A stretch of 64,000 nucleotides of DNA from Candidatus Cybelea sp. (GTDB taxonomy: Bacteria; Vulcanimicrobiota; Vulcanimicrobiia; Vulcanimicrobiales; Vulcanimicrobiaceae), in assembly GCA_035939175.1 (NCBI GenBank), contig DASZGC010000015.1:11261-75260 (forward strand). Direction: 5' to 3'. Position 1 is the stretch's first letter; the number at the start of each line of letters is the position of its first letter. Below the pieces are notes generated by a model. That model ran no database searches, had not been told where the DNA came from, and saw only the letters and a list, made by a program, of their open reading frames with translations. A program made the position numbers and the translations under genes. Shown one piece after another: positions 3,119 to 48,336 of this stretch.

Positions 3119-5176
3119 CTACGTCAAGTGCAGCGCAGCGAGGATGATGTCGATGAGCTTGATGCCGATGAACGGCACGATAATGCCCCCAAGTCCGTAG
3201 AGCATCACATTCTCCAATAATACGCGGTTGGCGCCCTTGGGCTGATATCGCACGCCTCGAAGCGCAAGTGGAATCAACGCGACGATGATCAGCGCGTTGA
3301 AGATCACCGCCGAGAGGATCGCGCTCTGCGGCGTGCTCAGCCGCATGACGTTGAGCAAGCCCATCGCGGGATAGGCCACCGCGAACATCGCCGGCAGGAT
3401 CGCGAAGTACTTCGCTACGTCGTTGGCGATCGAGAACGTCGTGAGCGCTCCGCGGGTCATCAGCAGCTGCTTGCCGATCTCGACGATCTCGATGAGCTTG
3501 GTCGGGTCTGAATCGAGGTCGACCATGTTGGCCGCCTCTTTTGCGGCTTGCGTGCCCGAGTTCATCGCCACGCCGACGTCGGACTGCGCCAGCGCGGGCG
3601 CGTCGTTGGTACCGTCGCCCGTCATCGCGACGAGCCGTCCCGACGACTGCTCGCGCTTGATCAGCTCCATCTTCGTCTCTGGCGTCGCCTCTGCGAGGAA
3701 GTCGTCGACGCCGGCCTCCTTGGCGATCGTCGCGGCGGTCAGCGGATTGTCGCCGGTGATCATGACGGTGCGGATTCCCATCGCACGCAGGCGGTCGAAA
3801 CGCTCCGCCATGCGAGGCTTGAGGATGTCTTTGAGATAAATCACGCCGATGATCGCCGTATCTCGCGCCAGCAACAGCGGCGTGCCCCCGCTGCGCGCGA
3901 TTCGCTCGACCTGCGGCGCCAACGCCGTCGAGCCGTCGCCGCCCGACGATGCGATCCAGGCCAGCACTGAGTCCGGCGCGCCTTTGCGAATCTTTGTTCC
4001 CCCTGCAAGGTCGACGCCGCTCATCCGTGTGTAGGCGCTGAAGGGAACGAACGTCGAGCCGGGAGGCGCTTCGCCATCGCGCGCGCCCGCGTGTTGCGCG
4101 AGCGCCACGATCGAGCGCCCCTCCGGCGTCTCGTCCGCGAGCGACGAAAGGTAGGCAACGTGAGCGGCCTCGCCGGCCTCGACTCCCGGCGCAGCGAGGA
4201 TCTCGACGGCCTGGCGGTTTCCCAGCGTGATCGTTCCCGTTTTGTCGAGCAGCAGCGTATCGACGTCGCCTGCCGCCTCCACCGCTCGCCCGCTCATCGC
4301 CAGCACGTTGCGCTGCATCACGCGGTCCATGCCGGCTATACCGATTGCCGAGAGCAGGCCGCCGATCGTCGTCGGAATCAAGCAGACCAGCAGCGCGATG
4401 AGCACGGTAACGCTCTGATGCACGCCCGCATAGACCGAGAACGGCCCCAGCGTGGCAACCGCGATGAGAAAGATTATCGTGAGGCCCGCGAGCAAGATCG
4501 AGAGCGCGATCTCGTTTGGCGTCTTCTGGCGCTGCGCGCCTTCGACCAGCCGAATCATGCGATCGAGAAAACTCTCGCCGGGATTCGCCGTCACACGCGC
4601 AACGATCCGGTCGGAGAGGACGCGCGTCCCGCCGGTCACCGCGCTCCGGTCGCCGCCTGATTCGCGGATGACCGGCGCCGATTCGCCCGTAATCGCCGAT
4701 TCGTCGATCGTGGCCGCGCCTTCGAGCACGTCGCCGTCGGCAGGCACGATCTCCCCCGCCTCAACCACGTAGCGGTCGCCCTTGCGCAGAGCCGTGCTCG
4801 CGATCGACTCCTCGGTTCCGTCGTCGTGCAGCCTGCGCGCGAAGGTGTCGGACTTGGTGCGCCGCAGCGCCTCTGCCTGCGCCTTTCCGCGACCCTCTGC
4901 GACCGCTTCGGCGAAGTTGGCGAAGATCACGGTAAACCACAGCCACGCTGCGATCGCGAAGTCGAAGCCGGCCATGCCGTTGCGTTCGAGCAAATCGCGC
5001 GCGAAGAAAAACGTAGTGGCCAGTGACCCCACCTCGACGACGAACATCACCGGGTTGCGCGCCTGCCACCGCGGGTCGAGCTTGCGCAGCGAGTCGCTTA
5101 CCGCGCGCGCGAGGATCGCGCGGTCGAAGAGGGAGAGCGCCCTCGGGCGACGGTCGAGCCGGCGTTGCGCGAGCAT
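3119..5176 (-). CDS. kdpB: K+-transporting P-type ATPase subunit KdpB
   Basis: Real start is ATG at 5176 ([18 protein letters not shown]...). It overlaps the kdpA stop by 1 nt (TAATG). P-type motifs present: [23 protein letters not shown]. The upstream 397 codons of ORF 3119..6367 are out of frame with kdpA and R/G-rich, so spurious. Confidence 0.95.
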
Positions 5177-6876
5177 TAGAACGTCTTTCCTTGCTGTACG
5201 AGAAGGTGCTCCACCACCGGGCCGAGCGAATCGGCCGGCAAGAACGTGAGCGCGCCCACGATCACGATCACGCCGAGCAGCAGCGCGACGAAGATGGGCG
5301 AGTGCGTCGTGAAAGTGCCGGGCCCTTCGGGGACTGCCTTCTTGCCCGCCAGCGCGCCGGCGAGCGCGAGCGCGGGCACCGCGACGGCGAAACGCCCGAA
5401 CACCATGTTTACGCCCGTGAGCAGATTGTAGAACAGGTTCGGCCCCAAGCCGGCAAAGGCCGAGCCGTTGTTGGCGTTCGTCGACGTGAACGCGTAGAGA
5501 ATCTCCGAGAAGCCGTGCGGGCCACCGTTGTTGAGCGTCGCCAGACCCGCAGGGAGCACCGCCGCGATCGCGGTGGGCACCAGCGAGAGCATCGGCGTTA
5601 CCAACGCAGCCAAAATCGCGAACTGTACCTCGCGGCGCTCGATTTTCTTCCCGAGAAACTCCGGCGTGCGACCTACCATCAGGCCGGCTATGAAGACCGT
5701 GAGCACCACGAAGACGATCATGCCGTAGAGCCCGCTGCCGACGCCGCCAAATACGATCTCGCCGAGCTGCATGTTCACGAGCGGCACGAGCCCGCCGAGC
5801 GGCATGAACGAATCGTGCATCGCGTTCACCGCACCGCAGGACGTATCGGTCGTGACGGTCGCGAAGAGCGCCGAGGCGGAAATGCCGAAGCGGCACTCCT
5901 TGCCCTCCATGTTGCCGCCCACGACCCCCATTTGGTGCACGATCGGATTGCCCGCGGACTCCGCTCCGTACGCTACGACGAACCCCGCGAAGAACAGGAT
6001 CGCCATCGCGCTGAAGATCGCCCAGCCTTGGCGCGTATCCTTCACCATCTTGCCGTACGTATACGTAAGAGCCGCGCCGAGAACGAAGATCAAGAGCATC
6101 TCGATTAGGTTGGTCAGCGGCGTCGGATTCTCGTTGGGCGACGCCGAGTTGGCATTTACGAAGCCGCCGCCGTTGGTGCCCAGCTCCTTGATCACCTCTT
6201 GCGAGGCCATCGGGCCGCCGGTGACCGACTGCGTGAAACCTTCGACCGACTTCACGCTCTGGTAGGCGTGAAGGTTCTGGGGCATCCCCTGCGACACGAA
6301 AAAGAGCCCGACGACGATCGAGAGCGGCAGTAGCACGTAGAGCGAGCAGCGCGTGAGGTCGACCCAAAAGTTGCCCAGCATCTTCGTCGAGGTGCGCGCC
6401 AAGCCGCGAATCACGGCGATCGCGATCGCGATGCCGGCTGCTGCCGAGACGAAGTTATGCCACGCCAGACCCGCCATCTGCGAAAGGTAGCTCATCGCGC
6501 TCTCACCGGAGTAGAACTGCCAATTCGTGTTGGTCGTGAAGCTGACCGCGGTGTTCCAGGCCAGATCCGGCGACATGTTGTCGAAGTGCTGGGGATTGAG
6601 CGGAAGCCACTTCTGCGTACGCAGCAGCACGTAGAGATATGCGAGCCCGATCAGCGAGAACGCCAGCATCGAGAGTGCGTAGGCATACCACGTCATCTCC
6701 TCGTCGGGGCGCACCCCGCCGATGCGGTAGATCGCACGCTCGACCGGCGCGAACACCGGGCTCAGCCACGTCCGCTCGCCCTCGAAAACGCGGGACATAT
6801 ACGAGCCGACCGGCTTGGTCAGCGCGAGAACGATCGAGAAGAACGCGCCCGCCTGGAGCCAACCGATCGCCGTCAT
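5176..6876 (-). CDS. kdpA: K+-transporting ATPase subunit KdpA
   Basis: Start taken at ATG 6876 ([13 protein letters not shown]...), 566 aa. Polytopic membrane protein with KdpA blocks: [24 protein letters not shown]. Confidence 0.95.
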
Positions 6877-6886
6877 TCGCGCACTC

Positions 6887-6976
6887 CTAAAAGCGCTCCG
6901 GCCGCAGCATCGCAAAAATGAGGTACGCCAGTGCCGCGAGCGTAAGCGCGAGACCCAGCGCGTCGTCCAAGACCAT
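6887..6976 (-). CDS. kdpF: KdpF, 29-aa stabilising peptide of the Kdp complex
   Basis: Not in the ORF track; hand-translated codon by codon as MVLDDALGLALTLAALAYLIFAMLRPERF*. It has the classic single TM helix and C-terminal LRPERF signature. It ends 10 nt upstream of the kdpA start. Confidence 0.8.
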   Translation of the reverse strand: MVLDDALGLALTLAALAYLIFAMLRPERF

Positions 6977-8130: not shown

Positions 8131-9375
8131 ATGGGTACCGCTGCGGCCTCGGTCAATATCGGAAACACCGGTTTTATGCTGCTCTGCGCGAGCCTCGTCA
8201 TGCTGATGACGCCTGGGCTCGCGTTCTTTTATGGGGGCCTGGTTCAGCGCAAGAACGTGCTGACCATCATGATGCAAAGCTTCATGTCGCTGGGGTGGAC
8301 CACGGTGATATGGTTCGCGTTCGGCTACTCCGAGAGCTTCGGCCCCGACTGGCACGGCATCATCGGCAATCCCGCCACCTACGCGATGCTGCGGGGCGTT
8401 ACGCTTCACACGATGTTCACCGGCAACGACGCGGGGATACCGCTCGTCGTCCACGTGGCCTATCAGATGATGTTCGCGATCATCACGCCGGCCCTGATCA
8501 CCGGTGCGTTCGCCAATCGCGTCACCTTCAAGGCATACTTTCTGTTCCTCACCTTCTGGCTAATCTTCGTGTACTTCCCGTTCGTGCACATGCTCTGGAG
8601 CCCGGACGGCATTCTGGCGAAGTGGGGCTGCCTCGACTTCGCCGGCGGCATCGTGGTGCACGCGTCGGCCGGCTTCGCGGCCCTGGCATCCGTGCTCTAC
8701 GTCGGGCGCCGTCACCTGATCGAGAACAAACCGCATAACGTGCCGCTGATCGCGCTCGGCACGGGCCTGCTGTGGTTCGGCTGGTACGGGTTCAACGCCG
8801 GCTCGGAACTGCGCGTCGACGCCGTCACCGCCTCGGCGTTTCTCAACACCGACATCGCCGCGTCGTTCGCCGCCATCGCGTGGCTGCTCGTCGAATGGGC
8901 GCGCGGACGCCAGCCGAAGTTCATCGGCTTGCTGACCGGTGCCGTCGCCGGACTCGCCACGATCACGCCGGCGGCGGGCTACGTGTCGCCCACCACTGCC
9001 GTGATCATCGGCATCGCTGCCGGCGTCGTTTGCTACTTTGCCGTCGCGCTCAAAAACCAACTTGGCTGGGACGACGCGCTCGACGTCTGGGGCGTGCACG
9101 GGGTCGGCGGATTTTTAGGAATCTGCCTGCTCGGCGTCTTTGCCTCCACGCTTTGGAACCCCAACGGCGCCGACGGTCTACTGCGCGGGAACCCCGCGTT
9201 CTTGGGTAAGCAGTTCGTCGCGGCAACGGTCTGCAGCGCCTGGGCGTTTTGCTTCACCTATGCGATGCTCTTCCTCATCAATCTCGTGACGCGCGTGAAG
9301 GTCGACGAAGCCGCGGAGCAACGAGGACTCGACGTCGAGCTGCACGGAGAGGAAGCCTATCCGCTCGGCGTGTGA
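8131..9375 (+). CDS. amtB: Ammonium transporter (Amt family)
   Basis: 414 aa with GGAGGG as RBS upstream. Amt blocks present: MTPGLAFFYGGLV, DFAGGIVVHASAGFAAL, GWYGFNAGS, VHGVGGFLG. Confidence 0.95.
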   Translation: MGTAAASVNIGNTGFMLLCASLVMLMTPGLAFFYGGLVQRKNVLTIMMQSFMSLGWTTVIWFAFGYSESFGPDWHGIIGNPATYAMLRGVTLHTMFTGNDAGIPLVVHVAYQMMFAIITPALITGAFANRVTFKAYFLFLTFWLIFVYFPFVHMLWSPDGILAKWGCLDFAGGIVVHASAGFAALASVLYVGRRHLIENKPHNVPLIALGTGLLWFGWYGFNAGSELRVDAVTASAFLNTDIAASFAAIAWLLVEWARGRQPKFIGLLTGAVAGLATITPAAGYVSPTTAVIIGIAAGVVCYFAVALKNQLGWDDALDVWGVHGVGGFLGICLLGVFASTLWNPNGADGLLRGNPAFLGKQFVAATVCSAWAFCFTYAMLFLINLVTRVKVDEAAEQRGLDVELHGEEAYPLGV

Positions 9376-13389: not shown

Positions 13390-15073
13390 GCCGGAACATG
13401 CGCGCGATCTCGTCGGGACTCAGACGCACCATGGTCGGACGACCGTGCGGACAGTGCATCGGATTGGCGCAGGTTTGCAGCCGTTCGACGAGCGTCGCCA
13501 TCTCCGCCGGCGCGAGCGTTTCCCCCGCGATCGTTACGCTGTGACATGCCAGCGTCGCCCACACGCGCTCGCGTACGTCGCGCTGCTTGGGATCCTCCGT
13601 GAGATCGTCGAGCAGACCGCCGAGGTCGAACGCGCGTCCGCCGTAGCCTCCGGGCGTCGCGACGATGCGATACGTTCGCTCGCCGAACGCTTCGATCTCG
13701 AGGCCGCCCTCGCGCAGCGTCTCGAGCGCGCGGTCGAGCGCCGCGCTGCGCGGCGCATCGAGCTCGACGACGTGCGGCACCAGAAGCGGTTCGCTCGGCC
13801 GGCGCTGTGCCGCCGCCGCGACGATCGCCTCATAGGCGATGCGCTCGTGCGCGGCGTGCTGATCGACCAGCAGCAGCGATTCTCCGTCGCTCGCGAGGAT
13901 GAAGGTGCGGTGGAGCTGCGCCAGCACCGTCAGCCTCGGCGCCGCGCCGCCCTGCGCGAGCTGCGTTTCGTTCGGGAAGAGCGAGATGCGGGGCTCCGCC
14001 GCCGCGAGTTCGCCGTCGCCGGTTGCGGGTTCTCGAGCGAATGCTCCGCTGGTCTGCTCGGCGAAACGCTCGCGCGCATTGTTTTTCAGCGTCGCGGCGA
14101 TGCTGCGGCGCGCGGCCTCAAAGACTTGAGCTGCGTATCGCAGCCGCACGTCGGACTTCGTGGGATGCACGTTGGGATCGACGTGATCGGGCGGAAGATC
14201 GAGAAACAGCACCCCGTATGGATGGCGCCCAAGCATCGTGAAGGTCGCGTAGCCGCTCGTCCACGACGCGCTGAGCAGCGCGCTGCGCACCAAACGGCCA
14301 TTGACGAACAGCATCTGCATCCGGCGATCGGCCCGGTCGCTGCCGGGCGCGCTGATGAACCCGCGCAGACCGCCGCCGAGCATGGTCGCCGAGCCTCCGT
14401 CGAGCGGCAGCAGCGTCTTGGCCGCCTGCGCGCCGAAAACCATCGCCAAGCGGTCGCGCTCGTCGGCGGCTGGGGGCATGATCCACACATCTCGCCCGTC
14501 GTGCCGCAGCGAGAACGCGACGTTCGGATAGGCCAGCGCGAAGCTCGAGAGCCACGAGGAAATGCGGTTGAACTCCGCGTTGGCGCCGCGCAGATACTCG
14601 CGCCGCACGGGAACGCGCTCGAAGAGCGAGGCGGCGCGAACGCGGGTTCCCACCGGTGCCGCGGCCGGCTCGACCGCGCCGATCCGTTCCTCCAAGGCTG
14701 CGACGCGCGCGCCGATCGGCGCACCCGGCCGGCGCGAGAGGATCTCCACCTCCGACACGGCGGCGATCGATGCGAGACCTTCGCCGCGAAATCCCAGCGT
14801 CGCAATCGATTCCAGCTCCGGCGCGGAGCGCAGCTTACTGGTCGCGTGCCGGCGCACGGCCAGCGCCAGCTCGCCGGCGGCGATCCCTTCGCCGTCGTCG
14901 ACGACCTCGATGAGGTCCAAACCACCGCGCTCGACGCTTACCGCGACGCGCGTTGCGCCCGCGTCGACGGCGTTTTCGACCAACTCCTTGACGACCGACG
15001 CCGGTCGTTCGATCACTTCGCCTGCGGCGATTTGACCGATCGTGACCGGATCGAGTTCGGCGATGGGCTGCAT
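13382..15073 (-). CDS. mutL: DNA mismatch repair protein MutL
   Basis: 563 aa. N-terminal GHKL ATPase motifs IAAGEVIERPASVVKELVENAVDAG and DDGEGI are present. The C-terminal dimerisation region contains CPHGRP. Confidence 0.9.
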   Translation of the reverse strand: MQPIAELDPVTIGQIAAGEVIERPASVVKELVENAVDAGATRVAVSVERGGLDLIEVVDDGEGIAAGELALAVRRHATSKLRSAPELESIATLGFRGEGLASIAAVSEVEILSRRPGAPIGARVAALEERIGAVEPAAAPVGTRVRAASLFERVPVRREYLRGANAEFNRISSWLSSFALAYPNVAFSLRHDGRDVWIMPPAADERDRLAMVFGAQAAKTLLPLDGGSATMLGGGLRGFISAPGSDRADRRMQMLFVNGRLVRSALLSASWTSGYATFTMLGRHPYGVLFLDLPPDHVDPNVHPTKSDVRLRYAAQVFEAARRSIAATLKNNARERFAEQTSGAFAREPATGDGELAAAEPRISLFPNETQLAQGGAAPRLTVLAQLHRTFILASDGESLLLVDQHAAHERIAYEAIVAAAAQRRPSEPLLVPHVVELDAPRSAALDRALETLREGGLEIEAFGERTYRIVATPGGYGGRAFDLGGLLDDLTEDPKQRDVRERVWATLACHSVTIAGETLAPAEMATLVERLQTCANPMHCPHGRPTMVRLSPDEIARMFRRV

Positions 15074-15110
15074 GCTACGACCTTCGCGCCGTGCCGCGCG
15101 CTCTCATGGG

Positions 15111-15140
15111 TTGACCCTGCGGCCATGGGCGCAGTATCCT
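15111..15140 (+). promoter_or_regulatory. Sigma70-like promoter for the M-box leader (TTGACC-18 nt-TATCCT)
   Basis: TTGACC at 15111-15116 and TATCCT at 15135-15140. The predicted transcription start falls a few nt before the riboswitch P1 stem. Confidence 0.45.
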
Positions 15141-15150
15141 GGTTGTTGAT

Positions 15151-15311
15151 TCCTCGTTAGGTGAGGCGTCTGCATGAAGAGTTGCCGCTGCCCGGAAAGG
15201 TCGAGAGACCCCAACGGGTAACCAGATCCCGCCGAATCAAGGCGGAATCTAATGCGGCTGTCCTTCTTTACGAAGGTCTAGGTCGTGCAGTGCTAAAGCT
15301 CGACACTGAGG
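15151..15311 (+). promoter_or_regulatory. M-box (ykoK leader) Mg2+-sensing riboswitch aptamer
   Basis: 161 nt, colinear with the B. subtilis mgtE M-box as recalled. Matching blocks are CGUUAGGUGAGGC (15155-15167), CUGcAUGaAGA, GCUGCCCggAAAgGUC, AAcGGGUaACcAGA, UAAUGCgGCUG and CAGUGCUAAAGCUCgAC (15288-15304). P1 is CCUC (15152-15155) pairing with GAGG (15308-15311). Confidence 0.85.
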
Positions 15312-15345
15312 TGCCGCCGCGAACGTTCGCGTGCCGGTTCTGCAA

Positions 15346-15377
15346 CTGTCGATCTGCGAGGATCGGCAGTTTTTTTT
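15346..15377 (+). terminator. Intrinsic terminator (expression platform of the M-box)
   Basis: 9-bp stem CUGUCGAUC / GAUCGGCAG with a 6-nt loop, followed by a run of 8 U. That run is very unusual in this GC-rich DNA. The element sits 30 nt upstream of the ATG. UCGACA (15300-15305) can pair instead with UGUCGA (15347-15352). Confidence 0.8.
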
Positions 15378-15406
15378 CTTCTTCGAAGGGACACGTCTGC
15401 AGGGAG

Positions 15407-17248
15407 ATGCTCGCGGCAATGCTCCTCTCCGCGATTGCAGCGGTGACTGCCAGCGCGCCTTCGCCGTCGCCTTCGCCCGCCTCGCGCTTTGACGCGCGAG
15501 TAAGCGGGTCTAACGTGTTCGTCGATCAAGCGACCGGTGGCCCGGGTACGACGCCGCAAGGCTACGCGTTCGCGCACGGCTCGCCCGCCGCGCCGATGTC
15601 GCCCTACGATTGGCTCGGCAGCGCGCCGGTCACGTCGGGCGTCGCCGGCATCGCCCAGTACGAGTTGACCGGCAGCTATCGCGGGGACGGCTTCGACTTC
15701 GCCGCGACCTTCGGCATCGGCGGCATCAGCGGAAGCACGACCAATGCGCTCTATTGGGGCGAGCCGACGATCGCCAACCTCAACGTTCACGACCTCTCGC
15801 GCATGGTTCCCTACGCCGTCGTCTTTCCAACGCACGCCGGTCAGGACGACGCGACGGTCGGCAGCGCCAACCTGCTCGGGCTCTCGTTTGCCGCGCCCGA
15901 CGATAGCTGGAGGGTGCGTGGCGGCTATCTTGATCTCACCCAGAGCGATCGTTTCGTCTTCAACCCGCCGGCGATCACCAGCGTCACGCCCTCGCTCGGC
16001 CCCTCAACGGCGGAGACACTTGGGCCCGGACTCGCCTCCGTCGACAGGTGGGCGGCAGCTCCGACGTCGTTACCACTGCTCGGCGCCGATGCATACTGGC
16101 ATCGCGGCGGCGCGTCGGTCGAGCTGACCGACGCCCTCTTGCCCTCACTGCCAGGCACGCAGGCCCGCTTGACGATGGGCTCCTTCGTGCTCGATCGGGG
16201 CGACGCCGGCCGATTCTCGGTGCAGGTCGCGCACGTCGCGACGAGCGGCGCGCCGATCGCAACCACGACGTTCTTCGGCGCCGATGGGGAGCTGCACGAA
16301 GGCCCGCAGGGGCGCCTCTTTACCAGCACGCTGGCCGATCAAGATCAAACGATCGCCGGCGCGCGAGCATTCTTTCATCCGCTGCGCGGCTGGGATGCGC
16401 TAGCGGAGATCGGTCGCGCGTGGTACGACGCGGGCGTGGTCGCCTATCCGGGCACGTCGCACTTCGGCAACTACGAGCATTTCAGCATCGCCCGCCATCT
16501 GGGCGACGACGTCGCCACGCTCGAATATCATCGTTTCGACCCGACGTACGCCACCGTGATTCTCCCGTACGGCATTCCTGAGAACGTATGGAGCATTGCG
16601 TGGTCGTGGCCCGGCGTCTGGCTCAAGTCGAACTACCAGCTCGTCGACAACTCCACGATCGGCGCAAATCGCGCGGGATACCATCTCCGCTACGACCATC
16701 CCGGCAAGCGCGTTGAGATTCACGCGTCGTACGGCGATTGGCGCCAACTGCTTCCGGAGACCGAGGCCAACGCCTCGCAGGTCGGGTTCGTCGACGGATT
16801 CTTCTTATTGCAGAAGAACGGCTTCGGCACGCTGGGCCGCGATCGGCAGGCCGGCCTCTACGTGGCGTGGCACGCGCTGCGCGACGACGTCGCCGTCGAC
16901 GCCGTCGACGATTTTCTCAGCCGTCCGGCCGATGCGGGCCAAGCGATCGATACCGTCTCGACGCGCGCGCCGCAGACGATCTTCACCTGGACGCATCACT
17001 TCAGCCGCCGTCTGCTCGCGGCAGCCGGCTACGGCCGTTACGCGCTGGCCGGCACCTGGGCGACAAAGCCGGTCGACGGGATCTACGGCGTGGCATTCGC
17101 CGGCGTGCAGATCGCGACCACGGCGAATACCGCGCTGCTGGTGCAAGCCCGGCGCTACGCGCTCGTGGGGCTTCCCTCGATCCCCTTTGGCCCGTCGCCG
17201 GCGATGCACGGCACCGCGCTGATCGTCGACCAGAGGATATCGCTGTGA
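15407..17248 (+). CDS. Uncharacterised 613-aa secreted protein, outer-membrane barrel-like
   Basis: Start taken at ATG 15407 (MLAAMLLSAIAAVTASA|PSPSPSP); ATG 15419 is also possible. There are no Cys and no recognisable domain. Many amphipathic beta-like strands are present: AGLYVAWHAL, IFTWTHHFS, AAAGYGRYAL, GVAFAGVQIA. The stop overlaps the next start (GTGA). Confidence 0.65.
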   Translation: MLAAMLLSAIAAVTASAPSPSPSPASRFDARVSGSNVFVDQATGGPGTTPQGYAFAHGSPAAPMSPYDWLGSAPVTSGVAGIAQYELTGSYRGDGFDFAATFGIGGISGSTTNALYWGEPTIANLNVHDLSRMVPYAVVFPTHAGQDDATVGSANLLGLSFAAPDDSWRVRGGYLDLTQSDRFVFNPPAITSVTPSLGPSTAETLGPGLASVDRWAAAPTSLPLLGADAYWHRGGASVELTDALLPSLPGTQARLTMGSFVLDRGDAGRFSVQVAHVATSGAPIATTTFFGADGELHEGPQGRLFTSTLADQDQTIAGARAFFHPLRGWDALAEIGRAWYDAGVVAYPGTSHFGNYEHFSIARHLGDDVATLEYHRFDPTYATVILPYGIPENVWSIAWSWPGVWLKSNYQLVDNSTIGANRAGYHLRYDHPGKRVEIHASYGDWRQLLPETEANASQVGFVDGFFLLQKNGFGTLGRDRQAGLYVAWHALRDDVAVDAVDDFLSRPADAGQAIDTVSTRAPQTIFTWTHHFSRRLLAAAGYGRYALAGTWATKPVDGIYGVAFAGVQIATTANTALLVQARRYALVGLPSIPFGPSPAMHGTALIVDQRISL

Positions 17249-18558
17249 GCGCCGCCGCGCCGGTTCGTCGGCCGAGCCTCTGGCGGTCGATCGTGATGTT
17301 TTTCTCGATCGTCGGCCCGGGCTTGATCACGGCCAACGCCGACAACGACGTCGGCGGCATCTGGACCTATTCGCAGGCCGGCGCGCAGTTCGGCTACTCG
17401 ATGCTCTGGATCCTGGTACCGGTCACGATTGCACTCATCGTCGTCCAGGAGATGTGCGCGCGCATGGGTGCGGTCACCGGCAAGGGCCTCGCCGATCTGA
17501 TTCGCGAGAACTTCGGCGTCAAAGTGACGTTTTGGTGCCTTCTGCTCTTCGTGCTGGGCGACGTCGGCAACACGGCGACGGAGTTTGCCGGCGTCGCCTC
17601 CTCGGCGCCGATCCTCGGCGGTTACATCCATGTACCGAGCCCCGAAGCATTCAAGATCGCGCTGGTTGCGGGAGCGGCGCTCTTCGTTTTCCTCACCGTT
17701 ACGCGCGGCAATGCCAAGGTGATCGAGCGCGTCTTCTTCGCGTTCTGTTTCGTATATATCGCCTACGTGATCAGCGCGTTCGCGGTGCGCCCCGATTGGG
17801 GTGAGGTGCTGCGTCAGAGCGTCGTTCCCCACTTCCAAGCGTCGAAAGCCTACTTGCTGATGGTCATCGCGATCATCGGCACGACGATCTCGCCGTGGAT
17901 GCAGTTCTACATCCAGGCCGCCGTCGTCGACAAAGGCGTCCGCGAAGAGGATTACGGCTACTCGCGGATCGACGTCGTGACCGGCGGGATTTGGACCGAC
18001 GTCATCGCCTATTTCATCATCGTTGCCTGCGCGGCCACGATCTTCGTTCACAACCTGCACGCCTCGCACGCGATCGCCGTCACCAACGACGTCGGCGACG
18101 TGGCCGCCGCCCTAACGCCGCTGGCCGGTAAGTTCGCCGGACTGCTCTTTGCGCTCGGACTGCTCAACGCTGCCGTCTTCACGGCCTCGATCCTTCCGCT
18201 CTCAACCGCCTACTACGTGTGCGAAGCGTTCGGCTTCGAACGCGGCGTCGATCATCGCTTCTCCGAGGCGCCGATCTTCTACAGCTTCTACCTCGCGCTG
18301 ATTCTCATCGGCGCCGGCGTCGTGATCGTTCCGGGCGCCCCGCTCGGCGGCATCATCTTCTACTCGCAGGTGCTCAACGGCATGCTGCTGCCGATCGTGC
18401 TGGTGCTCATGTTGCTGCTCATCAACAACAAGCGGCTGATGGGCAAATGGACGAACAGCCGCGCCTTCAACGTCATCGCCTGGGCAACGGTCATCATCGT
18501 CGGCGCGCTGACGCTCGTCTCGACGGCGCAGATCGTCTTCCCGTCGCTCGGCAGTTAG
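17245..18558 (+). CDS. NRAMP-family divalent-cation transporter with non-canonical metal site (NRAMP-related Mg2+ transporter candidate)
   Basis: GTG at 17245; 437 aa; NRAMP fold indicated by GPGLITA...QAGAQFGYSMLW. TM1 reads D-V-G-G (nt 17347-17358) where MntH has DPGN. TM6 reads S-P-W (nt 17890-17898) where MntH has MPH. Confidence 0.85.
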   Translation: MSAAAPVRRPSLWRSIVMFFSIVGPGLITANADNDVGGIWTYSQAGAQFGYSMLWILVPVTIALIVVQEMCARMGAVTGKGLADLIRENFGVKVTFWCLLLFVLGDVGNTATEFAGVASSAPILGGYIHVPSPEAFKIALVAGAALFVFLTVTRGNAKVIERVFFAFCFVYIAYVISAFAVRPDWGEVLRQSVVPHFQASKAYLLMVIAIIGTTISPWMQFYIQAAVVDKGVREEDYGYSRIDVVTGGIWTDVIAYFIIVACAATIFVHNLHASHAIAVTNDVGDVAAALTPLAGKFAGLLFALGLLNAAVFTASILPLSTAYYVCEAFGFERGVDHRFSEAPIFYSFYLALILIGAGVVIVPGAPLGGIIFYSQVLNGMLLPIVLVLMLLLINNKRLMGKWTNSRAFNVIAWATVIIVGALTLVSTAQIVFPSLGS

Positions 18559-18563
18559 CAGCC

Positions 18564-19685
18564 TCAGGGTGACAACGGCGCGAGGTCCAAGCCGATTACG
18601 AGTGCCGTCTTCGTTCCCGGTTTGACCGGCGCGGCGAAGGTACGCGCGAGCAGCGTGGCCGCGGGCGATGCGCCGATCACGACGCTCTTCGGTTTCGCGC
18701 GTTCGTCGACGAATGTGGGCACGTTCCAGCCCGCACCGCGCAGCGTGCCGACCAGCGTGCCGTCGAATGCCGTGTTGCCGGTGGCGTTGGCAACGAGCAC
18801 TTCGTCCTGCGGCGGGTCCTTGCGGGCGAAGAGGAGCGCTCCGATCGCCTTGGCCCACCGAACATCGGCGAAGACGACCGACGCATCTCCCACCCAGCCG
18901 GCCTTACTGGGGAGCGTGAACGAGCGGACGTCATCAGCGGGAATGTTGCGGTAGATCGCCAGCAGCGAGACGAGCTGCGCGTTGCTCAAGGTCGTGTTGA
19001 CGTTCCTTCGCGCGAGCGCCACGATCGCCGGCAGCTTCGCCCACTGCTGCGGTTGGCTGACGCGGTCCATCATCAGCTCGAGTACGCGCCGCTGGCGGCC
19101 CACGCGCCCGAAATCCGACGCGGCATCGTGGCGAAAGCGCACGTACCCGGCGACCTGGTCGCCGTCGAGATGCTGCTGCCCCTGCCGCAGGTGGATGTGC
19201 AGGCCGCCGCTGGCGTCGTCGTAATCCATATCCTCGTCGACGTCGACGTCGAGGCCGCCCATTGCGTCGACGATTGCCGCGGCACCTTCGGGCTGCACCG
19301 CGACGATGGCGTCGACGGGCACCCCGCCGAGCAGCGAGGCAACCACGCGGCCAGTCTCGTGCGCCCCCCCGTACGCGTATGCCGCATTGACCTTCATGTA
19401 ACCGTGCGGCGGAACGTTCACCCAGGTGTCGCGCGGTATCGAAACGAGCGTCGCGATCCGCCGCCCGGCATCGAGATGCGCGAGCATGATCGTGTCGGTC
19501 GTCGCCTCGTCGGCCTGAAATCCCAGAATCAGCAGGTTGAGCTTCACGTCCCCGAACGAGCGGCGCGCGGTCTGCGCCACGATCTGCCGGCGCACCGGTT
19601 CGCGCAGTCCAACGTATGCCGCGACGAGCGCCACCAGCACCGCGCCGGTCAGCGCTGCGATGAGCAGCCGAGTCTTGTTCAACAC
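18564..19685 (-). CDS. LytR-CpsA-Psr (LCP) family protein with a LytR_C-like C-terminal domain
   Basis: 373 aa with GTG start and GGAGGA RBS 6 nt upstream. One N-terminal TM helix. LCP block LLILGFQADEATTDTIMLAHLD...LVSIPRDTWV is present. Confidence 0.85.
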   Translation of the reverse strand: MLNKTRLLIAALTGAVLVALVAAYVGLREPVRRQIVAQTARRSFGDVKLNLLILGFQADEATTDTIMLAHLDAGRRIATLVSIPRDTWVNVPPHGYMKVNAAYAYGGAHETGRVVASLLGGVPVDAIVAVQPEGAAAIVDAMGGLDVDVDEDMDYDDASGGLHIHLRQGQQHLDGDQVAGYVRFRHDAASDFGRVGRQRRVLELMMDRVSQPQQWAKLPAIVALARRNVNTTLSNAQLVSLLAIYRNIPADDVRSFTLPSKAGWVGDASVVFADVRWAKAIGALLFARKDPPQDEVLVANATGNTAFDGTLVGTLRGAGWNVPTFVDERAKPKSVVIGASPAATLLARTFAAPVKPGTKTALVIGLDLAPLSP

Positions 19686-39496: not shown

Positions 39497-40902
39497 GGCG
39501 CGCGGCGTCTCTGACGCTGGCGTACGTGGCGATCGCGATTGCAATTCTGGCGGCGCGGCCCCAGGCGACGCCCGGTCCGGCGGCGCGAGACTTCGAAGCG
39601 TACTGGTCGGCCGGGGCGGCGTGGAACGCGCACGCCGATCCGTATTCGGCGGGGATCTGGACGTTCGAGCGCGCGGTGCCCGGCGTAGACCCACGCCGTT
39701 ACGAGTTGCTTCCCTTCGTCGGGCCGCCGCCGGCGCTGCCCGCGTGGAGCCTCTTTGCGCGCCTGCCTTACGGCGCGGCGACGGCGCTCTGGCTCTCACT
39801 GATCGGCGCGGCGATCGTCGCGCTGGCGCTGACCGCGGCGCGCGGAAGCGGCGCGCCGCCGAACGTCGCCACGACGCTGGGCGCGATCGCGCTCGCGCTT
39901 TCGTTCGGGCCGGTCACCAGCGACTTCGCGCTTGGACAACTTGCGCTCCCGGCATTTCTCGGCGCCACGCTGCTTGCTGCCGGTACGGCGCCCTTATCCG
40001 GCGCGACGATCTACGCGCTGCTCGCGTATGCGCAGCCGAACGTCGCGCTGGGACTGCTCTCGCAACTCGGGCGCAACCGCGCGACGCTGGCGATGATTGC
40101 CGGCGCTCTCGCGACCTACGCGCTTGGTGCGATCGCGGCGGGCCCGATGTGGCCGGTGCTCTACGCGCGCGCGCTCGCGGCCCATGCCGGAGCGGAGCGG
40201 TTTGCCGCGATTCAGCTCACGCCTGCGGCCATCGCTTACGGTTTCGGCGCGCCGCCGCCGATCGCGCAGGTCGCGGGCTTCGCATTCGCCGTGGCCGCGC
40301 TGACGGCTGGGATAGCTCTCACCGTGATGCTGCGCGAGCGATTCGCGCGCTTTGCCGCGTGCTCGGCGCTGGTGCCGTTCGTTTCGTCCTTCGCGCACGA
40401 GCACGATCTCGTCGTCGCCTATGCAGCGGCGCTCTGGTGCGCGCTGCGGACGCAAGGCGTCACTCGCGCAATCGCGCTCGTGGGAACGATCTTGGTAAGC
40501 GTCGACTGGCTCGGGCTGGCGCAGCGCCCCACCGGCGTGGGCCAGAGCGCGCTGCTCCTCGCCGCGGCGCTCGCGGCCTTTGTGGCGCTCGGCCCCATAG
40601 CCGTCAGGGCGACAATGGGGGTGAGAACGGTGGCGATAACGGCCGTGCTGATCCTGGCCGTCTTTGTCTCCGGTGCGTTGCTGGGCGCCGCGCACCCCGC
40701 GCCGGTGTGGCCCGACGCGATGCACTCCTTTGCGCCGCCACCCGGCGCTGCGGCGGCGACGCTGTGGCTAGCGGAGCAGCGAGCGACGGGGCTGCTCGCT
40801 GCGGTCCCCGCGTGGGCGTTGCTGAGAGCGCTCTCTCTCGGCGGCTGCGCGCTGCTGGTTTACGCTATATATCGACGTTCGTCATGTTGTCGAATGGCGT
40901 GA
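39493..40902 (+). CDS. Polytopic GT-C-type membrane protein (DUF2029/GT87-like glycosyltransferase)
   Basis: GTG at 39493 overlaps the M50 stop (GTGA). 469 aa with more than 10 TM helices. The N-terminal loop ARDFEAYWSAGAAWNAHADPYS is typical of DUF2029-type proteins. Confidence 0.55.
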   Translation: MRRAASLTLAYVAIAIAILAARPQATPGPAARDFEAYWSAGAAWNAHADPYSAGIWTFERAVPGVDPRRYELLPFVGPPPALPAWSLFARLPYGAATALWLSLIGAAIVALALTAARGSGAPPNVATTLGAIALALSFGPVTSDFALGQLALPAFLGATLLAAGTAPLSGATIYALLAYAQPNVALGLLSQLGRNRATLAMIAGALATYALGAIAAGPMWPVLYARALAAHAGAERFAAIQLTPAAIAYGFGAPPPIAQVAGFAFAVAALTAGIALTVMLRERFARFAACSALVPFVSSFAHEHDLVVAYAAALWCALRTQGVTRAIALVGTILVSVDWLGLAQRPTGVGQSALLLAAALAAFVALGPIAVRATMGVRTVAITAVLILAVFVSGALLGAAHPAPVWPDAMHSFAPPPGAAAATLWLAEQRATGLLAAVPAWALLRALSLGGCALLVYAIYRRSSCCRMA

Positions 40903-42481
40903 ACGCGCCCGGATTGTAACCCGTCAGGTTGGGATTATAGGTGAAGCCCGTGTCGAGTATCGCGAGAACGATCGTCGGGCAGTCGGCGATCACCATCCGC
41001 ACCTCCTGATCGAAGAGCTTGGCCTGTTCCGCCGGATCGTAGGTCGTCTTGATCTTTTCCATCAACGCGTCGGCCCTGGCGTTGCAGTAGTGGAGCACGT
41101 TTTGGCCATTGGGCGGAATCTGATTGCACTCCAGCGTGTTGGAGTAGTCGGGGATCGGGATGTCCTGCCAGGCAAACATCGTCATGTCCCATTTGCTGCC
41201 GTAGACGATGCCGCCGTTCTGATAGGGAGCGAAGAACATCGCCGGCGCGAACTTGCGCGTTTGAATGTCGATCCCCACGGCGCGCAGCTCTTCGCGGATC
41301 ATCTCAACCGTATCGTCGGCCGTCGAGACGCCGGTGTAGTAGGGGAACTGCAGCGAGAGCCTCTGGCCGTTCTTCACGCGAATGCCGCCCGGACCCATCT
41401 TCCAGCCCGCAGCTTCTAGCAACGCCCGCGCCTTGTCGGCGTCGTGTTCGAAGAACGGAATCCCCTTGGGCGCGAAGGGGAGAACGGGCGAGACGAAGCT
41501 CTCCTGAAGCGTCGCATAGCCATGCGAGATCTTGGCGACCATCTGACGGCGGTCGATTGCGTAGCGGATCGCCTGGCGCACGCGGACGTCGCTTACGAGC
41601 GGGCGCGTCACGTTGAAATCCAGGTGCGAGTAATATATCCCCGGGTGCACGTCGGTGTGCACGTTCGGGAGCGCTTTGGTCTGATAGATGTACGACGGCG
41701 CCACCTCGGGCCATAGCTCGACTTCGCCCGTCTGCATCAACGTGAGCAGCGTATCGCGCGACGGAATCAGCTTGTAGGTGATGCGCTGCAGCTTCGCCGC
41801 GCCGCGGAAATAGTAGGGGTTGGCCTCCAGGTCGATCGTGTCTCCACGCTTCCAGTCGACCACGCGGAAAGGCCCGATGCCCACGGGCTTGGAGTTGTAC
41901 GGGATGTTGTTGATATTGGGAAATTTCGCGAGCAGATGCACGGGAAGAACCGTCGGGTTCGCGCCGGCGCTGCCGAAAAACGTCGGGATGTACGGCGAGT
42001 AGGGGTGTTTGAGATGGTACACGACCGTGTACTTGTCGGGCTCGTCGATCTTCGTGATCAGATTCCAGCCGTCGCGGCCCACCTCGTTGTTCGCGGGGTT
42101 CAGCACGACTTTCGTTGAGAATACGACGTCGTCGGCCGAAAACGGCGCCCCGTCCGACCAGCGCACCCCTTTGCGCAGACGCCAGGTGATCGTATCGCCA
42201 TCCTTGCTGATCCCGCCGTTGGCCTGCGTCGGCACGACGGTGAGAAGCTCGGGATACGGCCGGTTCTGCGCGTCGTACTTCACGAGATACGCCTGGGTCA
42301 TCTGCGAGATGTAGCCCAACGTCGTCTCGGTGAAGAGGTGCGGATTGAGGGTCGTCACGTCGCCGGTGCCATCGGCGATCGTCAGGTAGTGCGGCGTGGC
42401 GCTGCTCTGGCCGCCTTTGGTGCACGAGCAGAGTGCGGCCACCGCGACGGCGACCGCCAGCAGGCGCGAAATCCTCGACAT
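40865..42481 (-). CDS. ABC-transporter substrate-binding lipoprotein, family 5 (peptide/nickel/opine type), copy 2
   Basis: Start set at ATG 42481 (MSRISRLLAVAVAVAALCSC, a lipobox) with GAGGAG upstream; the alternative is ATG 42502. SBP_bac_5 pattern is present: WRLRKGVRWSDGAPFSADDV, GIGPFRV. Confidence 0.85.
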   Translation of the reverse strand: MSRISRLLAVAVAVAALCSCTKGGQSSATPHYLTIADGTGDVTTLNPHLFTETTLGYISQMTQAYLVKYDAQNRPYPELLTVVPTQANGGISKDGDTITWRLRKGVRWSDGAPFSADDVVFSTKVVLNPANNEVGRDGWNLITKIDEPDKYTVVYHLKHPYSPYIPTFFGSAGANPTVLPVHLLAKFPNINNIPYNSKPVGIGPFRVVDWKRGDTIDLEANPYYFRGAAKLQRITYKLIPSRDTLLTLMQTGEVELWPEVAPSYIYQTKALPNVHTDVHPGIYYSHLDFNVTRPLVSDVRVRQAIRYAIDRRQMVAKISHGYATLQESFVSPVLPFAPKGIPFFEHDADKARALLEAAGWKMGPGGIRVKNGQRLSLQFPYYTGVSTADDTVEMIREELRAVGIDIQTRKFAPAMFFAPYQNGGIVYGSKWDMTMFAWQDIPIPDYSNTLECNQIPPNGQNVLHYCNARADALMEKIKTTYDPAEQAKLFDQEVRMVIADCPTIVLAILDTGFTYNPNLTGYNPGAFTPFDNMTNVDI

Positions 42482-42502
42482 GACCGGCGTTGCTCCTCTC
42501 AT

Positions 42503-44164
42503 CTAGATCGAGTAGTCCCAGGGGTTCCAAAACGCTGAAATCACCGGCGATGGGTCGAATCCCTTCAAGTCGCTGTTATAGACGTACGGCACGCGAGAAA
42601 AGTTGATGATGATCGTTGGCACGTCGTACGTCAGCTGCTGCTGAACGATCACGTAATCACGTTTTCTGCGGACCTGGTCGACCGTCGAGAGCGCGTCGTT
42701 CATTGCGGCGGTGGCTTTGGCGTTGTTCCAGAACATCGCATTCTGCCCATGCGGCGCGAAGTTCTCCGCGGAGTAGATGGCGCTGTCGTCGGGGTCGGCG
42801 GCTCCGGCCCAGCTGAAGCCGGCAACGTCGTAGTGTCCGCCCTGGAGCGTGCCGTTGGAGGAATTCTCAAAGAATTCGCTCGACGGGTAATTCTTGATGT
42901 CGGCTTGGATCCCGACCTCGCGCCATTGGTGCTGCAGCACCGTTTGCAGTGCCTTGCCGTAGGTCGACTCGGTCTGCGTGCTCAGCTGGAACTCCAATCG
43001 CTGCCCGTTCTTCACCCGAACGCCGTCAGGCCCGAGCTTCCAACCGTCGGCCTCGAGCGTTTGGCGCGCCTTGTCGGGGTCGTACGGATAGTGCGTGACG
43101 TCATCGGTATGCGCCCAAGACAGCAGGGGATTCTGATCGGTCTCGGAGGCAATCGCCGAGCCGTGCAGCAGCTTGTCGATGATCTCTTGGCGGTTTGTCG
43201 CGTAGGCGACGGCGACGCGCACGTTGCGGTCGCTCACGATCGGATGGCGCAAATTGAAGTCGAGATGTGAGAAGAAATACGAGTTGACGCGCGTCGCCAC
43301 GAGGCCGTTGGCCGGATCGGCCGCCAGCGAGGCGTACTGCGGCCACTTCATCGCCGAACCGGTCGCCAGCATGTCGATCTCGTGCGTCTGCAGCTGCGTC
43401 TCCTCGGTGTTCTCGTCGGGTAGGATCTTGTAGATCACCTGGCTGAGCTTCGGCTTTCCAAGATAGAAGTCTGGATTGGCCACCATTCGCACGTCCTGTG
43501 CGCGATTCCACGCCACCACTTTGAAGGGACCGCTGCCGATCGGCATCGAGTTGTAGGGCGCCGTGTTGAAGGAGCCCTTGTCGTCGTTGTACTTCTCTAA
43601 AAGGTGCTTGGGCAGGATCGGCGCGTTGCCGTTCACGCTCCAGAGCTGCTGCAGGAAGGGCGCGTAGAGCTTGTTCATGTGGATGAGCGCAACGTGTGGA
43701 TCCGAGCAGTCGATGCTTCCGATGCTCTTATAGCCGTCGGTCGTCACCACGTTGTTGTGCGTGTTCATGACGACTTGCCAGGTGAACTTCAGGTCGTCAC
43801 AGGTCAACGGCACGCCGTCTTGCCATTTGATGTTGGGGCGAAGTTTGTACTTGAGCGTAAGGCCGTCTTTGCTCACGTCTCCGTTAGCGATCGTCGGCAC
43901 CTCTCGCAAGGCATCGGGCACGGGGTTCGCCTTGGAGTCGTAGCGGATCGCCCACGAGAAGATGAACATCGAGAGATCGAGGGTGGGCGACGCGGAGTCG
44001 AGCACGGGGTTAAGACCCTTCGGATCGGTGGCTTCGGAGAAGCGAAAGACGCCGGGTTGCGTCCACGAATGCGTGCCGCCGGCACCGCCAGTCGAAACTT
44101 TGGTGCAGCCGGCGGCGCCGGCTCCCACGGCGAGCGCCGCGATGGCAACGAGGACCTTTCTCAT
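42503..44164 (-). CDS. ABC-transporter substrate-binding lipoprotein, family 5, copy 1
   Basis: 553 aa with lipobox AAGC. Pattern YKLRPNIKWQDGVPLTCDDL and GSGPFKV is present. The start overlaps the upstream stop (ATGA). Confidence 0.85.
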   Translation of the reverse strand: MRKVLVAIAALAVGAGAAGCTKVSTGGAGGTHSWTQPGVFRFSEATDPKGLNPVLDSASPTLDLSMFIFSWAIRYDSKANPVPDALREVPTIANGDVSKDGLTLKYKLRPNIKWQDGVPLTCDDLKFTWQVVMNTHNNVVTTDGYKSIGSIDCSDPHVALIHMNKLYAPFLQQLWSVNGNAPILPKHLLEKYNDDKGSFNTAPYNSMPIGSGPFKVVAWNRAQDVRMVANPDFYLGKPKLSQVIYKILPDENTEETQLQTHEIDMLATGSAMKWPQYASLAADPANGLVATRVNSYFFSHLDFNLRHPIVSDRNVRVAVAYATNRQEIIDKLLHGSAIASETDQNPLLSWAHTDDVTHYPYDPDKARQTLEADGWKLGPDGVRVKNGQRLEFQLSTQTESTYGKALQTVLQHQWREVGIQADIKNYPSSEFFENSSNGTLQGGHYDVAGFSWAGAADPDDSAIYSAENFAPHGQNAMFWNNAKATAAMNDALSTVDQVRRKRDYVIVQQQLTYDVPTIIINFSRVPYVYNSDLKGFDPSPVISAFWNPWDYSI

Positions 44165-48208: not shown

Positions 48209-48336
48209 CGGTTCCTTCGTCCGGTCCTTCATGGTCTGATATACGGAGCCCGAGGGCTTTTGATTCATCGGCCCGGGGGCCCTATCGTGGAACCGCGGCA
48301 TGAGGTAAACGGCTGCAGGGCGTATTTCAACGGGGC

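Follow-up and report, generated by a model that had tools for sequence, protein, structure and literature searches.

An M-box Mg2+ riboswitch precedes a predicted β-barrel protein gene and an NRMT-type transporter gene in Eremiobacterota

Mg2+ is usually assumed to cross the bacterial outer membrane through general porins, and models of Mg2+ homeostasis leave the outer membrane out of account. Here we report the analysis of a 64,000-nucleotide stretch of DNA from Candidatus Cybelea sp. (contig DASZGC010000015.1, positions 11,261 to 75,260 of the forward strand; hereafter referred to as the window), in which a Mg2+-sensing M-box riboswitch precedes a gene for a 613-residue, uncharacterised, predicted β-barrel protein, and this gene overlaps the start of a gene for an NRAMP-related Mg2+ transporter (NRMT). 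Parts of this arrangement have described counterparts. In Bradyrhizobium japonicum, the outer-membrane Mn2+ channel MnoP shares its regulation with MntH, the NRAMP transporter of the inner membrane (Hohle et al. 2011, as described in PMC9334652). The M-box-controlled pe20–ppe31 genes are needed by Mycobacterium tuberculosis for growth at low Mg2+ combined with low pH (PMC12810186). M-box control of NRMT genes is established (PMC4072509), and the NRMT class transports Mg2+ (PMC4072509; PMC8806188).

The locus in the window is best explained as a two-gene Mg2+-starvation operon, composed of a promoter, the M-box aptamer, an intrinsic terminator, the barrel gene and the NRMT gene, and the presence of one Mg2+-sensing RNA switch over both a barrel and a Mg2+ transporter suggests a two-membrane route for Mg2+ uptake. 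Direct computation underlies the riboswitch with its terminator, the overlap of the two genes, the prediction of a barrel-type fold, the assignment of the transporter to the NRMTs and the conserved linkage. From these results we infer the location, channel activity and Mg2+ preference of the 613-residue protein, and we consider it on balance probable, by a modest measure, that it is an outer-membrane cation channel that is induced by Mg2+ starvation and feeds the NRMT.

The riboswitch and the two overlapping genes

The elements of the operon, all on the forward strand, are as follows.

15111–15140 (+): promoter-like site TTGACC-18 nt-TATCCT, immediately 5′ of the riboswitch (consensus scan; a pattern match only)
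15146–15317 (+): M-box riboswitch aptamer, RF00380 (cmscan)
15344–15379 (+): intrinsic terminator serving as the expression platform, a 12-bp stem at 15344–15371 followed by TTTTTTTT (terminator scan and RNA fold)
15407–17248 (+): gene for the 613-residue barrel protein, called T in the gene orders below; alternative ATG at 15419 (list of open reading frames)
17233–17248 (+): GAGGA Shine–Dalgarno sequence at 17233–17237 and GTGA stop/start overlap at 17245–17248 (sequence)
17245–18558 (+): NRMT-type gene, 437 residues (Pfam and PDB sequence match)

The aptamer at 15146–15317 matches the M-box (Mg2+) model over its complete length (model positions 1–169) with 124.4 bits, relative to a gathering score of 44 (E = 2e-27), and is the sole Rfam match across the window. 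The sigma-70-like site at its 5′ side is the single such site in 14900–18800, where 0.5 would be expected by chance. Downstream of the aptamer, the terminator stem is followed by a run of eight T residues, the end of which lies 27 nucleotides (nt) from ATG 15407, and both the hairpin and the T-run are also kept in the aligned relatives. Read from the sequence, the M-box with its downstream hairpin and T8 run has the layout of a classical transcriptional OFF switch, and a possible 6-bp antiterminator could form by pairing of 15300–15305 (UCGACA) with 15347–15352 (UGUCGA). No in-frame start codon was found between the T-run and ATG 15407. The barrel gene thus follows a full-length aptamer and an expression platform on its own strand, with no gene in between, which is the layout of an M-box regulon member. 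An earlier note on this DNA, made from the letters alone, had described the gene as the first behind a riboswitch, and the RF00380 match, the terminator and the lack of an intervening start codon agree with that description.

The 613-residue open reading frame (ORF) that the note placed at 15407–17248 matches the ORF list. ATG 15407 and ATG 15419 lie four codons apart and neither has a well-spaced Shine–Dalgarno sequence; initiation at the second would give 609 residues, as in the database copy P0001, and this 4-residue ambiguity alters no conclusion. At the other end, the TGA of the barrel gene (17246–17248) and the GTG of the NRMT gene (17245–17247) share the tetranucleotide GTGA, as the note had reported, and the GAGGA sequence sits 7 nt 5′ of this GTG.

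The downstream ORF is assigned by Pfam to PF01566 (Nramp; 1.4e-93). Its best match among PDB sequences is EleNRMT, the Mg2+ transporter of Eggerthella lenta (7QIA; 1.4e-93), whereas MntH is matched at ~1e-26 (6e-26). In the metal site, NDVGG in transmembrane helix (TM) 1 and TTISPW in TM6 replace DPGN and A-x-x-M-P-H, so that, relative to NRAMPs, Asn is changed to Gly in TM1, Ala is changed to Thr in TM6 and the TM6 Met is absent. NRMTs are defined by these same three changes, through which the metal site gains room for partly hydrated Mg2+ (PMC8806188). On these sequence signatures, the downstream gene is of the NRMT type and not an MntH-like Mn2+/Fe2+ transporter. The NRAMP-family assignment made earlier therefore stands, with the refinement that the protein is an NRMT-type Mg2+ transporter rather than a generic NRAMP or MntH, and this strengthens the Mg2+ reading of the operon.

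Together, these elements suggest how the operon may be controlled. At high cytoplasmic Mg2+, the M-box would be compact, the terminator at 15344–15371 would form and transcription would halt before the genes. At low Mg2+, read-through would yield one mRNA for both proteins, the translation of which would be linked by the GTGA overlap.

The 613-residue protein and its predicted fold

The features of the protein, again on the forward strand, are listed below.

15407–15457 (+): putative Sec signal peptide MLAAMLLSAIAAVTASA, residues 1–17 (sequence and family N-terminal alignment)
15458–15484 (+): Pro/Ser linker PSPSPSPAS, residues 18–26, with a (P-S/T)n tract kept family-wide (alignment)
15485–17242 (+): predicted 24-stranded β-barrel, residues 27–612 (AlphaFold2 and Foldseek)
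16559–16630 (+): most conserved segment PYGIPENVWSIAWSWPGVWLKS, residues 385–408, in the 44-residue loop between strands 15 and 16 (alignment)
16883–16912 (+): strand 19, DDVAVDAVDD, with the invariant Asp 494, 498 and 502 (the aspartate ladder; alignment)

The N terminus reads MLAAMLLSAIAAVTASA|PSPSPSP, in which an h-region and the cleavage motif A-S-A can be recognised. No Cys residue occurs in the protein. The signal peptide, the PSPSPSP linker and the absence of Cys were all noted before and all hold, with the caveat that the n-region of the signal peptide has no Lys or Arg. The C terminus (...ALIVDQRISL) resembles a β-signal, and family members end in L, I or F. Searches of Pfam and NCBIfam with the protein returned no match at E ≤ 1, and PDB sequences gave none by either a single-sequence (phmmer) or a profile search, in line with the note's failure to recognise a domain. 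Hidden Markov model (HMM) searches likewise bridged to no described porin family, and membership in Porin_1/4, OprB, OprD, LamB, BBP2 and others was rejected, as none of them matched at E ≤ 1.

An AlphaFold2 model, calculated from a 39-sequence alignment, has a predicted TM-score (pTM) of 0.79 and a mean predicted local distance difference test score (pLDDT) of 75.5. It is all-β, with 24 strands of 8–19 residues, in agreement with the many β-strand-like segments seen by the earlier reader, and it is not the soluble non-barrel fold that would have spoken against a barrel. All 11 even-to-odd connections are turns of 2–5 residues, which are predicted to be periplasmic, whereas the odd-to-even connections include loops of 34, 37, 48, 44 and 30 residues. 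In the model, this alternation of short turns and long loops is the canonical topology of outer-membrane proteins. Hydrophobicity alternates clearly in strands 1–9 and 21–24. A relative from clade B with 52% identity, modelled from its own 18-sequence alignment, shows the same strand order; the confidence of this second model is moderate (pTM 0.61) and it serves as a consistency check only.

A Foldseek search of the PDB with the first model gave 300 matches at E < 1e-3, and the top 50 listed are all outer-membrane barrels, including FimD/PapC, SlpA, MtrB, LptD, OccD/K, chitoporin and AlgE, with TM-scores of 0.25–0.41. Among the matches listed for the clade B model, all are again outer-membrane barrels. 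The best E-values belong to the 24-stranded ushers FimD and PapC (8.6e-9, TM-score ~0.32). Because the TM-scores reach just 0.25–0.41, the matches reflect generic barrel similarity and point to no specific family. The large barrel and the identity of the top matches (FimD/PapC, AlgE, MtrB and LptD) could be taken to mean that a macromolecule (a polysaccharide, a pilus or a periplasmic protein, for example) is exported through this barrel or sheathed by it, in the manner of AlgE, ushers or MtrB. We consider this very unlikely, given the low TM-scores, the lack of a plug and of periplasmic domains, the absence of chaperone, pilin, synthase or cytochrome genes from the operon and its conserved synteny, and the M-box and the NRMT as the sole conserved partners.

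Specific assignments were also rejected one by one. The protein is not an usher, as it has no plug, no N- or C-terminal domains (the strands span residues 27–612), no match to the Usher or PapC Pfam families and no chaperone or pilin neighbours. It is not a TonB-dependent transporter, as neither Plug nor TonB_dep_Rec is matched and the first strand begins 9 residues after the predicted cleavage site. LptD, MtrB and AlgE, although matched by Foldseek, were set aside in view of the low TM-scores and the missing accessory domains and partner genes. The protein is thus probably, on the strength of the models, an outer-membrane barrel of about 24 strands that belongs to an undescribed family.

An outer-membrane location presupposes a diderm host. 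The window has a G+C content of 66% and derives from a soil bacterium of the phylum Eremiobacterota (= Vulcanimicrobiota). An outer membrane is visible in electron micrographs of cultured Vulcanimicrobium alpinus (PMC9758169), lipopolysaccharide (LPS) and BamA genes are present in genomes of the phylum (PMC6664022), and the window itself contains the TolC-like gene reported in the note, next to a HlyD-type gene. From this evidence, the host phylum is diderm. The two genes of this efflux pair, as annotated in the window, are:

45357–46949 (−): OEP-family (TolC-like) gene
46952–48301 (−): HlyD-type gene, adjoining the OEP gene

Several features of the sequence would fit a cation path through the barrel. 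The mature protein is acidic, with 52 D+E relative to 37 K+R and a pI of 5.6, and the long loops hold 18 D/E relative to 5 K/R. Conservation is 0.72–0.88 in the long loops and 0.72 in the strands; because the loops equal or exceed the strands in conservation, unlike in typical porins, they may be functional parts inside the barrel. The residues of PYGIPENVWSIAWSWPGVWLKS are invariant in A1 and A2, and its loop ranks above all other segments in conservation (0.88), which makes it a candidate in-pore constriction or plug. Asp 494, 498 and 502 are invariant in clade A and have the equivalents D505, D509 and D513 in clade B. By residue alternation, they share one less hydrophobic and presumably lumen-facing face of strand 19, and the orientation and function of the ladder are deduced from this pattern.

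We therefore picture the barrel protein as follows. After export by the Sec pathway, it would be assembled in the outer membrane as a β-barrel of 24 strands without a separate plug domain. Its long conserved loops would probably be folded into the lumen and, with the aspartate ladder and the net acidic charge, would form a cation-conducting path. This path would raise the Mg2+ permeability of the outer membrane and the flux to the periplasm, from which the uncoupled inner-membrane NRMT would take up Mg2+, with the two proteins present in linked amounts.

Family distribution, conserved linkage and alternative functions

The family has at least 568 homologues in a collection of 5.8 billion proteins, all of them unnamed or termed 'hypothetical'. 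Their organism labels are Eremiobacterota, except for a few differently labelled metagenome-assembled genomes (MAGs) at 66–69% identity. An exhaustive HMMER profile search of 1.84 billion representatives retrieved only 139 proteins, of which many are short fragments. The family is therefore small and closed, and, judged by record names, it is confined to Eremiobacterota. The closest locus (L004) lies in a MAG labelled Candidatus Eremiobacteraeota and encodes a barrel protein that is 94% identical. Record titles place the MAGs in peat, palsa and other soils that are acidic and oligotrophic, an ecology that would fit an uptake function.

The most distant informative match with an annotated domain, and the sole detectable remote relative, is P0255 (MCD6310082.1; 697 residues, low G+C, labelled Eremiobacteraeota), which consists of an SLH domain, a stalk and a barrel. 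Its SLH domain and stalk match OmpM/SlpA, and its barrel aligns to the family (hhalign 93%, 328 columns), which hints that the barrel family derived from SLH-anchored porins of the OmpM/SlpA type. P0144 (1352 residues), in which a methyl-accepting chemotaxis protein is joined to a full barrel, is probably a merged gene call, and a few further 'fusions' among the profile matches resemble merged gene calls too. The precomputed PF27998 tag of P0114 was not reproduced by a Pfam scan.

To define the genomic context, one genome per species was scanned, which yielded 139 relatives, and the best 80 loci were analysed together with the window (81 loci in total). The barrel gene (T), NRAMP-type genes and M-boxes were located by tblastn and nhmmer, NRAMP genes were sought within 5 kb, and negative loci and variant arrangements were rechecked with Rfam. 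The gene orders found, in the direction of transcription, are:

M-box > T > NRMT: 40 loci
M-box > T alone: 5 loci
M-box > NRMT > T: 3 loci
M-box > NRMT > second NRMT-like paralogue > T: 1 locus
M-box > second NRMT-like paralogue > T: 3 loci
M-box > paralogue > T > NRMT: 1 locus
T > NRMT without an M-box: 3 loci (two truncated upstream; M-box deleted in L021)
paralogue > T: 1 locus
T alone: 24 loci

An M-box lies upstream in 53 of the 81 loci (intact in 52), in all three clades of the family and in at least four gene orders, and the M-boxes of the variant arrangements were confirmed by Rfam. The arrangements with an NRMT-type gene between the M-box and the barrel gene sum to 8 loci. As the arrangement recurs in dozens of species, it is far beyond chance. 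Of the 43 loci in which the barrel gene precedes the NRMT gene, about 35 have overlapping stop and start codons (ATGA, GTGA or TGATG), which makes translational coupling a conserved trait. The survey thus yielded conserved synteny with the M-box and the NRMT, the absence of which the earlier note had named as evidence against its proposal.

The riboswitch might belong to the NRMT alone, with the barrel gene as a passenger. We rejected this explanation on account of the varying gene order and the loci in which an M-box precedes the barrel gene with no NRAMP gene present. In at least four species, the barrel gene stands directly behind the M-box with no NRAMP gene within 5 kb, so the barrel would be a target of Mg2+ control in its own right.

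A low-Mg2+-induced barrel need not be a channel, and an outer-membrane protein that protects or remodels the envelope under Mg2+ starvation, either by stabilising LPS like OprH or as a lipid enzyme like PagP, PagL or OMPLA, would also show the predicted induction through the M-box and might account for the many invariant His, Asp, Ser and Trp residues. The low-Mg2+ regulons of Pseudomonas and Salmonella include such outer-membrane proteins. The known examples, however, are 8–12-stranded rather than 24-stranded barrels, no HMM of any such family in Pfam or NCBIfam matched, and the conserved translational coupling to an importer and the recurrence beside two NRMT subfamilies argue for a partnership in transport. 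We therefore regard an envelope function as improbable, and favour a channel.

Whether such a channel would serve Mg2+ is a separate matter. In 24 of the 81 loci, neither an M-box nor an NRAMP gene lies within 5 kb, Rfam detected no other riboswitch there, and the proteins keep the invariant motifs of the family, the aspartate ladder included; the family is accordingly not tied exclusively to Mg2+ limitation. The protein could then be a general diffusion porin of the phylum without Mg2+ selectivity, the M-box-controlled copies of which would add unspecific permeability when Mg2+ is scarce while the others are constitutive. The generic structural matches (TM-scores of 0.25–0.41) and the architecture of P0255, which is that of the general porins OmpM/SlpA, are also consistent with this explanation. 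Three observations oppose it. Among the best 80 of the 139 relatives, the clade A copy found per genome, where second copies are possible, sits behind a predicted OFF-switch riboswitch, and cells replete with Mg2+ would not silence a housekeeping porin. In the long loops, conservation exceeds that of the strands, in contrast to the surface-variable loops of general porins. Finally, the M-box linkage arose or persisted in several gene orders. A general porin thus seems unlikely to us, though less so than an envelope protein, and a cation channel for Mg2+ uptake remains the reading that we prefer.

Several points weigh against this reading. All of its support is computational, from sequences and models. 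Besides the 24 unlinked loci, the n-region of the signal peptide is atypical throughout the close clade, whereas more distant relatives (clade B) have canonical signal peptides, such as MRTFFFTAATVLLAFITVCVPARAQE. No clearly hydrophobic face is seen in strands 14–20, pLDDT is < 50 in the most conserved loop, and barrel closure, an open pore and the placement of the loops are presumed from the modelled strands. To our knowledge, a 24-stranded barrel far exceeds any ion-selective porin in size, and in well-studied diderms general porins usually suffice for Mg2+ entry. The weak lipid-facing hydrophobicity of strands 14–20, the atypical signal peptide and the 95 residues with pLDDT < 50 might even indicate a soluble or periplasmic β-rich protein, such as a Mg2+-binding one, that AlphaFold2 has wrongly drawn as a barrel. 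We judge this highly improbable, in view of the pTM of 0.79, the regular meander of 24 strands in hairpins with 2–5-residue turns on one side only, the exclusive matches of two models to outer-membrane barrels, the β-signal-like C terminus and the SLH anchor of the remote relative P0255. For the outer-membrane channel in a two-membrane module that the earlier note had proposed, the barrel fold, the conserved synteny and the diderm host all speak in favour; its dedication to Mg2+ is what we infer.

The survey also revealed variation around the operon. Four species of the close clade (L003/L036, 5001–6764; L029; L033; L039) have neither an M-box nor an NRMT gene, and in L003/L036 the barrel gene occupies the same mutL/LytR-family site as in the window, where its neighbours are mutL, the NRMT gene and a LytR-family gene. 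The riboswitch and the transporter thus appear to be gained or lost together. In the sister species L017 (4540–4700) and L021 (4600–4800), the M-box is lost and the barrel–NRMT gene pair is kept: L017 has lost the 3′ half of the M-box and the terminator, leaving a truncated remnant (counted above as M-box > T > NRMT), and L021 has no M-box at all and an in-frame deletion in the small ORF described below. From these deletions, both would be natural derepressed variants.

The second NRAMP-related subfamily found between the M-box and the barrel gene is longer (538–603 residues), is ~35% identical to the NRMT of the window, and has DNDAGA and TTVAPWQ motifs and a C-terminal extension (L056:3244–4860, L071:3074–4885, L073:758–2490, L074:3217–4836 and L051:3241–4863). 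In L064 (7707–10821; also L060, 7753–10887), a BBP2/OmpL-like porin gene (PF07642, 3.7e-47) lies directly 3′ of the barrel gene and is followed by kdpA; as read from these sequences, the phylum here offers a further example of a gene for an outer-membrane barrel beside an inner-membrane cation-uptake system. Other transport genes in the window are kdpD (374–2512), kdpA (5176–6915, −), an ammonium transporter gene (8131–9375) and two genes for family-5 solute-binding proteins (40865–44164, −).

Most related operons contain a leader of 370–600 nt between the M-box terminator and the first gene (L005:4628–5000, with equivalents in L006–L019, L025, L026, L034, L047, L053, L056, L059, L071 and L074), which is absent from the window (15318–15406) and from a few relatives. 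The leader has a strong Shine–Dalgarno sequence (GGGGGTGA) with a conserved ATGGACGACGGNCCNAGTAG start ('MDDGPS', variable at synonymous positions), followed by two conserved hairpins and then by a small ORF of 40–48 residues just 5′ of the first gene (consensus MK.iLAFLL...H[DN]D.LRA[NG]Q...F[SR][YF]WR[SA]LV[SD]). An Rfam search with the leader gave no match at E ≤ 1. In L051 (3127–3240), an MDDGPS element without an M-box of its own separates the first NRMT gene from the second NRAMP-like gene, and the element may therefore be an independent regulatory module.

Comparison with described systems

If the proposed uptake route is true, some diderm bacteria also regulate the outer-membrane step of Mg2+ uptake, and the M-box regulon extends past inner-membrane transporters to a β-barrel. 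A family of several hundred 'hypothetical proteins' would gain a function, and the outer-membrane proteins of Terrabacteria a new large-barrel architecture, possibly derived from OmpM/SlpA-type porins. The phylum now has a cultured member. In a stronger form of the proposal, the family would be a class of plug-less 24-stranded barrels in which in-folded loops and the aspartate ladder select hydrated Mg2+, and which, made in fixed proportion with the NRMT, would constitute a dedicated two-membrane pathway; this would be the first β-barrel outer-membrane channel governed by a riboswitch and the first specialised for Mg2+. We advance this form tentatively and think it doubtful; were the channel Mg2+-specialised, outer-membrane Mg2+ permeability could limit growth in oligotrophic, acidic soils. 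A search of the open-access literature found no report of a porin or β-barrel under M-box or magnesium-riboswitch control.

As far as MnoP–MntH is described in the source cited above, the locus resembles it in that an outer-membrane channel for a divalent metal would be switched on together with an NRAMP-family importer when the metal is scarce. Relative to that description, the metal here would be Mg2+ instead of Mn2+, control would be exerted by a cis-acting riboswitch instead of a protein regulator, and the two genes form one translationally coupled operon in which the barrel has ~24 strands and belongs to an unannotated family.

The M-box > NrmT operons of Clostridia and Deltaproteobacteria (PMC4072509) share with the window an M-box and a clear NRMT. 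The described operons have no outer-membrane component, whereas the operon of the window begins with a barrel gene, the end of which overlaps the NRMT start. The transporter itself is like EleNRMT (PMC8806188) in having the TM1 Gly, the TM6 Thr and no Met, the position of which is taken by Ser here and by Ala in EleNRMT.

For the barrel, the OmpM/SlpA SLH-anchored porin-tethers of diderm Terrabacteria (8BYS, 8BYM and 7ZGX) are linked to the family through P0255, and SlpA is among the Foldseek matches. Unlike them, the protein of the window has no SLH domain or stalk, only a Pro/Ser linker after the signal peptide, and its sequence similarity to the solved OmpM/SlpA barrels is undetectable. The ushers FimD/PapC are alike in apparent strand number, a resemblance in barrel size only.

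In pe20–ppe31, as here, an M-box stands over proteins for Mg2+ acquisition across an outer membrane, in that case the mycomembrane (PMC12810186). The earlier note had known of no M-box-regulated outer-membrane protein; PE20/PPE31 are such a precedent, although as functional analogues only: PE/PPE proteins are α-helical and unrelated to β-barrels, whereas the protein described here is all-β in the model and matches no PE/PPE family of Pfam. The two systems also share a small ORF between the M-box and the first gene, in most relatives and not in the window, and the leader ORF of these relatives recalls the conserved upstream ORF behind the M. tuberculosis pe20 M-box (PMC12810186). The M. tuberculosis switch acts on translation and through Rho, whereas the M-box of the window has a classical intrinsic terminator. 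Relative to both MnoP–MntH and pe20–ppe31, the new elements of this locus are an undescribed β-barrel family with a predicted ~24 strands and no plug, a terminator-type riboswitch and the coupling to an NRMT.

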